A stretch of 44,047 nucleotides of DNA from a virus: the UHGV virus genome UHGV-0196292; one strand, 5' to 3'. Positions 22,050 to 25,059 of this stretch are shown here, piece after piece. The translations under genes were made by a program, and so were the position numbers. The notes under the pieces are model-generated. The model searched no databases and was not told the DNA's origin. It saw only the letters and a program-made list of their open reading frames with translations. Each line of letters opens with the position of its first letter. The stretch's first letter is position 1.

Positions 22050-22198
22050 CAATGTTTGCATTTTGGACGATAGTAACCCTGCTCGCACTGTTACTCGGTG
22101 CAGGAATAGCCGCGATGTTCTGTTACGGTCTGTTCTTTAAGTTTGTCGGTATTGCGGTTCTCGGAGGGGCGTTTATAACCTGGACTCTGCGGTCATGA
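22046..22198 (+). CDS. micro-protein, two-TM (50 aa)
   Basis: Hand translation MTMFAFWTIVTLLALLLGAGIAAMFCYGLFFKFVGIAVLGGAFITWTLRS; ATGA overlaps on both sides. Confidence 0.35.
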   Translation: MTMFAFWTIVTLLALLLGAGIAAMFCYGLFFKFVGIAVLGGAFITWTLRS

Positions 22199-22506
22199 CT
22201 AAAGAGGGCCGCGTACAGAAATACGCAAAAGAGCGATTCGAGGCCATTGGTGGCCTCATTCGTAAACTTTCCTACGAGGGGCGCTCCGGCGCTCCCGACC
22301 TGCTGGTAATTCTCCCCGGGGGCATCGTCTGGTTCGTCGAGGTGAAGAAAGACGAAAACACGAAGCCAGACCCGCACCAGCTACGTGAGCACGAGCGGAT
22401 GCGCAAACGCGGTGCAAATGTTTTTGTCGTTGGGTCGTTTAAACAGGTTGACGACCTAATAGCGAACTATTATAGTTATCCGTACACCAACAATATAAGG
22501 AATTGA
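22195..22506 (+). CDS. VRR-NUC domain nuclease
   Basis: Core GAPDLLVILPGGIVWFVEVKKDEN...LREHE (PD-(D/E)XK-type) in ~100 aa. Confidence 0.7.
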   Translation: MTKEGRVQKYAKERFEAIGGLIRKLSYEGRSGAPDLLVILPGGIVWFVEVKKDENTKPDPHQLREHERMRKRGANVFVVGSFKQVDDLIANYYSYPYTNNIRN

Positions 22507-22509
22507 GAA

Positions 22510-22701
22510 ATGAAATACGAATATGGCTGCAAACCAGCACGTGACATCGTACCGGGCGACATGATTTTCAACGTTAAGACCCGCCAGCCTGTTGCCGTTG
22601 ATACGGTGTTCGTAGAGTCTAACGGTAAACTGGTAATCGAAGATGTAACCGGTAACGTTACGGCGTTCGGACGTAAAGAGTTGGTGCTGGTGGCCAAATG
22701 A
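22510..22701 (+). CDS. hypothetical small beta-rich protein
   Basis: 63 aa ORF between VRR-NUC and methyltransferase genes. Confidence 0.35.
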   Translation: MKYEYGCKPARDIVPGDMIFNVKTRQPVAVDTVFVESNGKLVIEDVTGNVTAFGRKELVLVAK

Positions 22702-23642
22702 ACTATTACAACGAATGGGATAAAGGCGCAGCCGCGTGGCTGCGTGAATTAATAAAACAGGGCCACATACCTTTTGGAGTTGTAGATGAAAGAAGCATTA
22801 CCGAAGTTAAGCCAGAAGACCTTGACGGGTTCACCCAGTGTCATTTTTTCGCTGGCATCGGCGGCTGGCCTCTCGCGCTCAGACTTGCGGGAGTTTCGGA
22901 AGATACGCCTCTCTGGACGGGAAGCCCGCCTTGCCAACCGTTTAGCGCGGCAGGAAAACAACTCGGACAGTTCGACCCGAGACACCTCGCGCCAGTCTTC
23001 CTCGACCTCATCAGCGAGTGCCACCCTCCAGTCCTCTTTGGGGAACAGGTTGCGCCAGCAATTGCAAAATCGTGGATGTGCGATTTACAAACTCACCTGG
23101 AAGGAGAAGACTACGCCGTCGGGTTTGCCGTACTCCCAGCTTGTAGCGTCGGCGCTCCGCACAAAAGAGAACGACTCTTCTTTGGTGCGTACCAACTGGC
23201 CTGCACCGACAGCGAACGATTACAAAGGGAGCGGAGAGACTGTTATCCGCAAGGACGGGAAGGACAGAACATTCGACAGGCTGGACTACTCAACGGAACA
23301 GGGGCTAAAACTGACGAATTGGCCCACCCCTCGCAGTTCGGATGGGGAAAAGAACGTGAGAACACTAGAGGGGGCGCTATCGGAGATTCAGAGGAAGGGT
23401 GGGCCTCAAGACGTGGCACAAGCGGCGGCGATAACACAACTAATTCGCATCACGGCTTCTGGTCAGATGCTGACTGGCTCGGATGCCGGGATGGAAAGTT
23501 CCGGCCAGTTGAACCCGACACATTCCCGCTGGCTAATGGGATACCCGCCAGAGTGGGACGATTGCGCGGTTACGGCAATGCCATCGTCCCGCAAGTAGCC
23601 GCCGAATTTATAAAGGCGTTTATGGGGGCCGTAAATGAGTAA
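22698..23642 (+). CDS. DNA (cytosine-5) methyltransferase, apparently frame-disrupted
   Basis: Frame 0: motif I FAGIGGW, IV PPCQPFSAAGK, VI FGEQV, VIII GAPHKRERLFFGAY, X GYGNAIVP; motif IX (RWLMGYPPEW) and WPxPTA-type TRD repeats only in +1 frame (track ORF 22786-23598). Confidence 0.6.
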   Translation: MNYYNEWDKGAAAWLRELIKQGHIPFGVVDERSITEVKPEDLDGFTQCHFFAGIGGWPLALRLAGVSEDTPLWTGSPPCQPFSAAGKQLGQFDPRHLAPVFLDLISECHPPVLFGEQVAPAIAKSWMCDLQTHLEGEDYAVGFAVLPACSVGAPHKRERLFFGAYQLACTDSERLQRERRDCYPQGREGQNIRQAGLLNGTGAKTDELAHPSQFGWGKERENTRGGAIGDSEEGWASRRGTSGGDNTTNSHHGFWSDADWLGCRDGKFRPVEPDTFPLANGIPARVGRLRGYGNAIVPQVAAEFIKAFMGAVNE

Positions 23643-25059
23643 GTTTCAAAGGCGCGAATACCAGAAGCTCATGACTTCGTTCATGCTGCAACATCCGCGC
23701 TGTAATATTTGGGCGAGCATGGGCGCCGGGAAGACCGGCAGCGTACTGTGGACATTAAACCGACTGTTCCGCAACGGCCAACTTAATGATGACGACCGCG
23801 TGTTAATACTCGCCCCGCTGCGCGTTGCGTCCGGCACATGGCCCGCAGAACAAGAGAAATGGCAATTCCCATGCCTGAATGTCGTCGATGCTACCGGTTC
23901 AGAGAAGCGCCGCATCACGGCGCTGGAGTCAGACGCCAATGTGATTTGCATCAACTACGAGGTCATAGACTGGCTTATTGACTATTACGGCGTGGATGAC
24001 TGGCCATTTACTGTAATAGTCAACGATGAAAGCACGAAATTGAAATCATATCGTAGCCGTTCCGGGGGGAGCAAGCGGGCTAAGGCACTTAGTAAAGTAG
24101 CATTCAGAAATGTTAAGAGGTTGATAAACCTTACTGGTACGCCATCGCCAAACGGCCTCAAGGATTTGTGGGGCCAGAACTGGTTTATAGACGCTGGCGA
24201 GCGACTTGGTTCTTCGTACACGGCATTCACCGACCGCTGGTTTAACTCGGTACAGAAGGGCAAATCAGCTATGGCGCGCGAGTACCACGCCCGCCCTGGC
24301 GCAGATAACGAGATTCACCAGAAGATGAAGGATATTAGTCTCACTATTGACGCTGCCGAGTGGTTCGGCTGTGAAGCGCCGATTATCGTTCCTGTTGAAA
24401 TCGACCTGCCGAAGAAAGCACGTCAGGCGTACATTGATATGGAGGAGAAGTTATTCGCGGAACTGGAGAGCGGGGAAGTTGAAGCGGCTAATGCAGCAGC
24501 GAAGACGTCGAAGTGTTTGCAGATTGCCTCTGGTGCCGTGTATGTATCGGGGCCAGACGGTGAAGCAACCAAAGACTGGGAGAAAGTGCACGACACGAAA
24601 CTGGATGCGCTCGAGTCGATTGTTGAGGAGTTACAGGGCGCTCCGTTACTGGTGGCCTATCAGTTTAAGCACGAACTGGAACGTATCCTTAAGCGTTTCC
24701 CACAAGCTCAGGCGTTTGCCAAAGGTGCGAAGGGCAATAAGCAGATGGAGGCGTGGAACCGTGGCGAAATACCTATGCTCCTGATACACCCCGCCTCCGC
24801 AGGCCACGGGCTGTCGCTACAACACGGCGGGCACCACATGGCCTTTATGAGTCAGGGGTGGAACCTGGAACATTATCTGCAGGTTATCGAGCGTATAGGC
24901 CCAGTAAGGCAGATGCAATCTGGGTATAAACGGTCTGTATTCATTTATCAAATAATAGCCCGAGATACTCTTGATGAAGTTGTTGCCGCGCGTACCGACG
25001 AGAAAAGGTCCGTACAGGACGAACTACTTAATTATATGAAGCGCAGAGGTAAGAAATGA
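23635..25059 (+). CDS. SNF2-family helicase
   Basis: P-loop (GAGKTG), DExx-like (VIVNDEST), LTGTPSPN motif and C-terminal helicase region. Confidence 0.8.
   Translation: MSKFQRREYQKLMTSFMLQHPRCNIWASMGAGKTGSVLWTLNRLFRNGQLNDDDRVLILAPLRVASGTWPAEQEKWQFPCLNVVDATGSEKRRITALESDANVICINYEVIDWLIDYYGVDDWPFTVIVNDESTKLKSYRSRSGGSKRAKALSKVAFRNVKRLINLTGTPSPNGLKDLWGQNWFIDAGERLGSSYTAFTDRWFNSVQKGKSAMAREYHARPGADNEIHQKMKDISLTIDAAEWFGCEAPIIVPVEIDLPKKARQAYIDMEEKLFAELESGEVEAANAAAKTSKCLQIASGAVYVSGPDGEATKDWEKVHDTKLDALESIVEELQGAPLLVAYQFKHELERILKRFPQAQAFAKGAKGNKQMEAWNRGEIPMLLIHPASAGHGLSLQHGGHHMAFMSQGWNLEHYLQVIERIGPVRQMQSGYKRSVFIYQIIARDTLDEVVAARTDEKRSVQDELLNYMKRRGKK

Follow-up and report, generated by a model that had tools for sequence, protein, structure and literature searches.

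A phage C5-cytosine methyltransferase gene overlaid by a second conserved gene in another reading frame

The 44,047-nucleotide genome UHGV-0196292, referred to here as the window, is that of a K1G-like coliphage (Kagunavirus) in which two genes occupy the same stretch of one strand. Gene A, in frame 0, encodes the catalytic part of a C5-cytosine DNA methyltransferase and carries motifs I, IV, VI, VIII and X, while gene B, in frame +1, lies inside it (Table 1). According to the list of open reading frames (ORFs), both are open in the window. The canonical order of such an enzyme, in which motifs I to VIII are followed by a variable region with motif IX and then by motif X, is spread over the two frames. 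B consists of an unconstrained N-terminal part of about 74 amino acids, a conserved block, two modules of WPxP type and a motif-IX-like C-terminus, and its tail AVTAMPSSRK (23566-23595) uses essentially the same bases as motif X of A. The pair consists of two genes overlaid in different reading frames, and selection has maintained it in phages and prophages from many phyla of bacteria. The overlap is real, widely distributed and of ancient origin, and belongs to a type of overlapping gene pair that is known but seldom recognised.

Table 1. Coordinates of the features of genes A and B in the window
Feature	Coordinates	Strand	Frame	Description
Gene A (alpha-like chain)	22698..23642	+	0	314 aa; C5-cytosine methyltransferase large-domain chain
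Predicted translation start of B	22776..22788	+		GGAG 22776-22779, 6-nt spacer, ATG 22786-22788
Gene B (beta-like chain)	22786..23598	+	+1	270 aa; wholly inside A
Motif I of A	22845..22868	+		FFAGIGGW; phmmer/hhalign against M.HhaI, sequence
Motif IV of A	22923..22946	+		SPPCQPFS, catalytic Cys; phmmer/hhalign against M.HhaI, sequence
Dual-coded zone II	23008..23192	+		A: motifs VI and VIII; B: SSASATLQSSLGNRLRQQL...IYKLTWKEKTTPSG...QLVASALRT
Motif VI of A	23034..23051	+		LFGEQV
Motif VIII of A	23151..23183	+		GAPHKRERLFF
Central B-only zone	23193..23450	+		Holds both WPxP modules; in A a stop-free linker of unconstrained sequence
WPxP module 1 of B	23197-23310	+	+1	WPAPTANDYKG...
WPxP module 2 of B	23320-23433	+	+1	WPTPRSSDG...
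Dual-coded zone IV	23451..23585	+		A: FWSDADWLGCRDGKFRPVEPDTFPLANGIPARVGRLR; B: RITASGQMLTGSDAGMESSGQ then LNPTHSRWLMGYPPEWDDC
Motif-IX-like element of B	23509-23565	+	+1	LNPTHSRWLMGYPPEWDDC, contains RWLMGYPPEW
Motif X of A	23568..23594	+		GYGNAIVPQ
B-specific stretch			+1	GSGETVIRKDGKDR

Residues 73-166 of A match Pfam PF00145 (E 3.7e-16), residues 35-164 align to residues 2-170 of M.HhaI (hhalign, E 8e-11), which is also matched by phmmer, and the full length falls in PHROG 363 (E 3.5e-86). Motifs I, IV, VI and VIII are present in order on this single chain, as is usual for the family. Motifs IX and X do not stand together on A after the variable region, where only X is present, and no profile (Pfam, hhalign against M.HhaI) aligned a motif IX in A. 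The gene thus codes for the catalytic core of the family, although not for a canonical enzyme on a single chain. An earlier note, made from the sequence alone, had described conserved motifs split over two open frames and a 314-aa product without the conserved variable region or a recognisable motif IX. Both statements hold, the split being confirmed by the ORFs, the motif positions, the PF00145 and hhalign matches and the matches in frame +1. The limits of the two readings had been placed differently: conserved frame +1 sequence begins not at about 23190 but at about 23008, where it overlaps motifs VI to VIII, and conserved frame 0 sequence resumes not at 23568 but at about 23451, where it overlaps the motif-IX-like element. 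The N-terminus of A, YYNEWDKGAAAWL (22704-22742), precedes motif I and matches residues 37-47 of M.HhaI (YSNEWDKYAQE), which are from the motif II region. This suggests, from the match, that motifs II and I are in permuted order in the methylase family to which A belongs.

The frame +1 reading far exceeds what chance would give, because the B translation matches 236 phage records by tblastn, belongs to PHROG 1008 (E 3e-35) and, used as a profile, matches 19,497 cluster representatives at E <= 1e-3; the first search had returned 1526 homologues. The tblastn matches include N15, BcepC6B, epsilon15 and phages of Rhodobacter, Burkholderia, Xanthomonas and Vibrio. PHROG 363 and PHROG 1008 are both labelled 'DNA methyltransferase' and are not linked there as an overlapping pair.

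The 945-nucleotide interval of A is 96% identical to Escherichia phages vB_Eco_K-01 and phiEc3/phiEc4 and matches 89 phage records, and the exact A protein has been recorded from a metagenomic Caudoviricetes assembly. A is colinear over its full length with N15 gp58 and with its homologues in Erwinia phage Gungnir39 and Bordetella phage PHB09 (42-57% identity, E 1e-78 to 1e-135). The colinear stretch includes the conserved C-terminal sequence FWxxxDWLxCRDGKxRPVEPxxFPLxxGxxxRVGxLRxYGNAI, in which about 37 strongly conserved residues precede motif X. Two sets of loci were assembled. In the first, made up of 39 loci in species-representative genomes found through B peptides, A is in a single frame with B in frame +1 in 39/39, and both ORFs are open in almost all. 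They represent Pseudomonadota, Acidobacteriota, Planctomycetota, Bacteroidota and candidate phyla. In the second, 80 IMG/VR loci found through A N-terminal peptides alone, B was detected in frame +1 in every case (80/80) and both ORFs are uninterrupted. Among these approximately 120 loci neither A without B nor B without A was found. N15, epsilon15 and a Rhodobacter phage share the layout. So does phage C72C1, a divergent case in which A has a classical N-terminus and is 29% identical to that of the window: the frame +1 protein is there too. Relatives differ in length by multiples of three, leaving both frames intact; the gene is 945 nucleotides in the window and 825 in phage K1G. Annotations of the K1-specific coliphages list both overlapping ORFs, in K1G as ORF31 'C-specific methylase' and ORF30 'Mte8-like protein', although the meaning of 'Mte8' could not be traced. 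Remote Escherichia coli prophage copies give blastn matches only at 23002-23189 and 23452-23585, which are the two dual-coded zones. All copies in E. coli genomes are prophage orphans with no restriction enzyme nearby, and the plasmid matches are to phage-plasmids or megaplasmid prophages.

Selection on the two frames was assessed from the third-position entropy at conserved four-fold-degenerate A codons in 32 diverse, codon-aligned loci, and the same measure was repeated in an independent set of 73 viral loci. Region I (A 1-100), in which A alone is constrained, has an entropy of 1.65 bits (1.74 bits in the viral loci). The values for region II (A 101-165) and region IV (A 252-296) are 0.79 bits (1.13) and 0.53 bits (0.89), respectively. 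Region V (A 297-314), past the B stop, has 1.29 bits, from one site (1.57). The differences from region I are significant for region II (p 2.5e-5 in the 32 loci, Mann-Whitney, and 5e-4 in the viral loci) and for region IV (p 1.5e-8 and 1.6e-7). Sites at which one base accounts for at least 90% are absent from region I and make up 7/16 in region II and 12/21 in region IV. Entropy at A position 1, which is B position 3, is also low in zone IV (0.57 bits). Neither frame is a passive shadow of the other.

The B frame has the converse pattern. Residues 1-75 of B are unconstrained, with B position 2 (A position 3) the most variable there. From about residue 78 onwards, B columns are conserved at positions 1-2 and free at position 3, for example at L81, G97 and P111, and the third-position entropy in the WPTP columns is 1.6-1.9 bits. 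In one module common to 15 distinct sequences, the columns that vary number 16, 11 and 33 of 38 at B positions 1, 2 and 3, respectively; hardly any change is seen in the B peptide there, while the A translation diverges freely. Even so, A is open through the central zone in 32/32 loci, where 6.0 would be expected from synonymous shuffling of the B codons (summed log10 P = -33.7), which indicates that translation of A continues through the zone. Stops in the third frame of the same zone number 0-10 per locus. The possibility that frame +1 is a passive shadow of frame 0 was rejected, as central-zone substitutions fall at B position 3 and the A translation diverges. Purifying selection acts on both frames, which are also conserved and open, and the order of constraint along the gene is A-only, dual, B-only, dual and A-only. 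Reduced synonymous variability where the other frame is conserved and retention of both ORFs across divergent relatives, the features by which overlapping genes are recognised, are both present.

B has a conserved internal start signal, comprising a predicted ribosome-binding site and an ATG. In the window the spacer between them ends in a frame +1 stop, TAG (22783-22785), directly before the ATG. The B frame is open upstream as far as A codon 18-35 in 28/32 loci, compared with an expectation of about 17, and in the viral set the upstream opening has its median at A codon 23. The first B-frame ATG recurs in relatives at A codon 30 or 36. In most other lineages it is formed by Asp36-Val37 of A (GAT GTN), and Asp36 is GAT in 26/27 loci, compared with a GAT:GAC ratio of 96:133 at other Asp codons. 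Arg32-Ser33 of A written as AGG AGC generates the sequence AGGAG 8 nucleotides upstream of the B ATG; Arg32 is AGG in 13/32 loci (41%), whereas AGG accounts for 9% of Arg codons elsewhere. Among the viral loci the first B-frame ATG is at A codon 30 in 23 loci, 36 in 21, 26 in 12 and 28 in 4, so that it lies within A codons 26-36 in 60/73, and a tetramer resembling a Shine-Dalgarno sequence is found upstream of it in 43/73.

The split motifs had originally been put down to paired sequencing errors, to recent inactivation or to recoding. Beyond the appearance of a single sequence there is nothing in favour of sequencing errors or of a decaying gene in which the frame +1 similarity is a leftover. 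The same two-frame layout is present in every homologue examined, including those of N15, epsilon15 and the Erwinia, Bordetella and Rhodobacter phages, and is found in independent isolates and assemblies from many phyla. The preservation of both frames by length differences in multiples of three and the purifying selection on both are likewise against it, and this explanation is excluded. It had also been reasoned that homologues colinear with frame 0 throughout would make the frame +1 matches coincidental. Such homologues do exist, but the matches are not coincidental, because frame +1 is under purifying selection of its own. Programmed recoding, by which a +1 shift after motif VIII and a -1 shift after motif IX would generate a canonical single-chain enzyme, accounts for the order of the conserved elements in the DNA, with VIII in frame 0, the WPxP modules and IX in frame +1, and X back in frame 0. 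Two metagenomic sequences (P0081 and P0087) do read from A into B. They switch at different places, however, and both lack motifs VIII and X. The proposed +1 site, TTCTTTGG (TTC TTT G), is not conserved, with relatives having TAC TGG, TGG TTT and others, and no canonical slippery heptamer was seen at the return site. Recoding would leave unexplained why A is open across the interval that it would bypass. It would also leave unexplained why B is conserved for about 185 nucleotides upstream of the shift site and A for about 115 nucleotides upstream of the return site, with substitutions of coding type. B also has a Shine-Dalgarno sequence and ATG of its own. In genes expressed by frameshifting the junction is conserved and the zero frame need not stay open beyond it; here the junction is not conserved and the zero frame is kept open. 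M.EcoHK31I functions as two polypeptides (PMC2836561). Recoding is for these reasons considered very improbable.

It is likely that A and B together are a two-chain C5-cytosine DNA methyltransferase of the M.EcoHK31I type. As judged from the sequences, both chains would be made, would associate and would both be needed for methylation, with the WPxP modules setting the specificity. Chain A, translated from the ATG at 22698, would provide the large catalytic domain that binds S-adenosylmethionine, with motifs I to VIII N-terminal and motif X C-terminal. These parts would be joined by a linker of about 85 residues, the sequence of which is free to vary and which would have to remain stop-free because motif X must stay on the A polypeptide. 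Chain B would be translated from its own ribosome-binding site and the ATG at 22786. Beyond its N-terminal tail, which would be dispensable, this chain would contribute a conserved association block, the variable WPxP modules and the motif-IX-like element, which would be the elements that form the small DNA-recognising domain in single-chain enzymes. In those enzymes the small domain is made up of the variable region and motif IX, and the large domain of motifs I to VIII and X (PMC3404938). It is on this domain make-up that A is equated with the large domain and B with the small one.

M.EcoHK31I of E. coli, which recognises YGGCCR, is a heterodimeric C5-methyltransferase with a nested beta gene (PMC2836561; PMC3404938). 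Both papers summarise primary work by Lee, Kam and Shaw (1995) and Fung et al. (2006). Its alpha chain has motifs I to VIII and X and its beta chain has motif IX. The chains must associate for activity and the nested beta is required, although truncation of the beta N-terminus is tolerated and internal Met codons can be used as starts (PMC2836561; PMC3404938). The beta ORF is entirely inside alpha, on the same strand and in another frame, as B is in A. The partly dispensable beta N-terminus has its parallel in the approximately 74 unconstrained residues and variable start of B. A has the motif set of alpha. A counterpart of motif IX in B is weakly suggested by the sole hhalign match between the B profile and M.HhaI, of B 240-258 to HhaI 272-290, which is in register but has an E of 0.17 over 19 columns. 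The likeness put forward is one of shared architecture, taken from the published description of M.EcoHK31I. There are also differences. The gene in the window is carried as an orphan by a lytic, Kagunavirus-like phage, its relatives in prophages have no adjacent restriction enzyme, and B carries shuffled WPxP modules. Literature searches for descriptions of such nesting of an ORF in the cytosine methylase genes of phages returned M.EcoHK31I alone.

B could instead be a true case of overprinting in which the product, rather than being a subunit of the methyltransferase, is for example a DNA-binding or anti-defence protein, with A active alone and its conserved C-terminal segment serving as a minimal recognition element. 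This would agree with the lack of a significant match between the B profile and Pfam families or solved methyltransferases, with the strongly conserved segment of about 37 residues that A has of its own before motif X, and with the cases in which the B frame runs into unrelated downstream genes (Dam, DUF2800). It is nevertheless unlikely, given that B never occurs without A, nor A without B, in the approximately 120 loci and that the conserved parts of B are placed where canonical enzymes encode the small domain. The B C-terminus also aligns, albeit weakly, to motif IX in register, and the characterised nested beta of M.EcoHK31I is needed for activity (PMC2836561). Several observations weigh against a two-chain enzyme all the same. 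Neither the B sequence nor its profile gave anything meaningful against solved structures (PDB), and against Pfam and NCBIfam no family was found, 143 representatives being blank apart from two run-on fusions. The motif IX match is weak. The start position of B is not fixed: the N15 gene has a frame +1 stop at A codon 63, so that B must begin further downstream. Structure lends no support, since both AlphaFold2 models are too poor. That of B, from a 38-sequence alignment, has a mean predicted local distance difference test (pLDDT) score of 50 and is confident only at about residues 80-125, as a helix and beta-hairpin, and that of A, from 40 close homologues, has a mean pLDDT of 43 with the central residues 182-256 as coil. 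In M.EcoHK31I the alpha chain is said to hold the target-recognition domain, whereas the variable region of A is unconstrained, and the division of labour between A and B may therefore differ from that in M.EcoHK31I. Single-chain relatives with an in-frame B-like region were sought, and none of the top 143 family representatives carries PF00145 (0/143). Two proteins from the first search that have both PF00145 and B are mid-gene frame switches.

M.AquI is a natural C5-methyltransferase that is likewise split in or near the variable region and in which two polypeptides reconstitute activity (PMC3404938). Its small subunit differs in holding both IX and X and in not being nested (PMC3404938), while in the window motif X is on A. 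The presence of motif X on A forces A to read through the B coding region.

Bacillus phages SPR, phi3T, rho11s and H2 encode multispecific orphan C5-methyltransferases, in which tandem, exchangeable recognition modules are located in the variable region. The WPxP modules of B are likewise swapped, being shuffled among close relatives in an alignment of Kagunavirus B proteins. The Bacillus phage enzymes differ in being single polypeptides. The unconstrained variable region of A, together with the exchangeable WPxP modules of B, suggests that specificity lies in B. That in the family as a whole, a very large set of orphan Dcm-like enzymes of phages and prophages, target specificity resides in the nested B chain and not in the annotated methyltransferase, and that the WPxP modules are exchangeable cassettes, shuffled between phages to re-target methylation, is put forward tentatively, as a possibility rather than an expectation. 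At least four WPxP module types, of which examples are ...ANDYKGSGETVIRKDGKDRTFDRLDY..., ...CAQNGTVNGYTDWEKVIKRKEAGRQQNLQDV..., ...RSADGEKNVRTLEGALSEIQRKGGPQD... and ...AVSLITNDVNMRSTDGRTKPNKLG..., are present in varied combinations in phages that are otherwise more than 90% identical. The insertions and deletions between them are all in multiples of three, so that neither frame is broken.

If specificity does reside in B, the 'variable region' of the annotated enzyme would be a mere stop-free spacer, and thousands of database 'DNA cytosine methyltransferases' would be obligate heterodimers of which the specificity subunit is unannotated. At about 810 nucleotides, the overlap would rank with the longest and most broadly conserved that are known on a single strand in prokaryotic viruses. 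Gene callers keep one frame, which has left thousands of B-frame 'hypothetical proteins' in the databases and A-frame methylases listed without a partner; most genome records annotate only one of the frames, and an intact copy is in at least one case labelled a two-piece pseudogene. If B is required, expression of the annotated methylase alone would fail or mislead in phage engineering, in restriction evasion and in the interpretation of methylomes. The locus is a clean and quantifiable case of long same-strand dual coding, with a five-part pattern of constraint maintained across phyla, and is suited to the study of how two proteins share sequence and how module swaps spare the other frame. 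The locus also shows that genes with an apparent frameshift are not necessarily pseudogenes or products of sequencing error.

The copy annotated in two pieces is in an E. coli prophage (L132, NZ_CP041110.1, 2564-3733), where A and B are both intact, yet the Prokaryotic Genome Annotation Pipeline (PGAP) gives two pseudogene fragments. This is probably an annotation artefact of the unconserved central linker of A. Run-on of the B frame is seen in a Pantoea prophage (P0246/P0392), in which it continues into the downstream Dam (PF05869) gene as an ORF of 497-498 aa, and in P0276, in which it continues into a DUF2800/PD-(D/E)XK gene. These may be real fusions or the result of a gene caller taking the longest ORF. 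A few copies from metagenome-assembled genomes (L027, L010 and L035) have frame switches or a stop in the N-terminal part of A. These defects, like the mid-gene switches from frame A to frame B in P0081 and P0087, are likely to be assembly indels or decayed copies. The 134-aa 'cytosine methylase' of Dunaliella viridis virus SI2 (L047, 1410-1814) is a deletion remnant without the catalytic core, in which the C-terminal parts of both frames are retained.

Upstream of A in the window are an ORF resembling VRR-NUC/Holliday junction resolvases (22195-22506) and a 63-aa ORF (22510-22701), the stop of which overlaps the A start. Downstream, the ATG of a helicase gene (23635-25059) is at 23635 and overlaps the last codons of A by 8 nucleotides. 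These overlaps with the neighbouring genes suggest translational coupling in a replication module.

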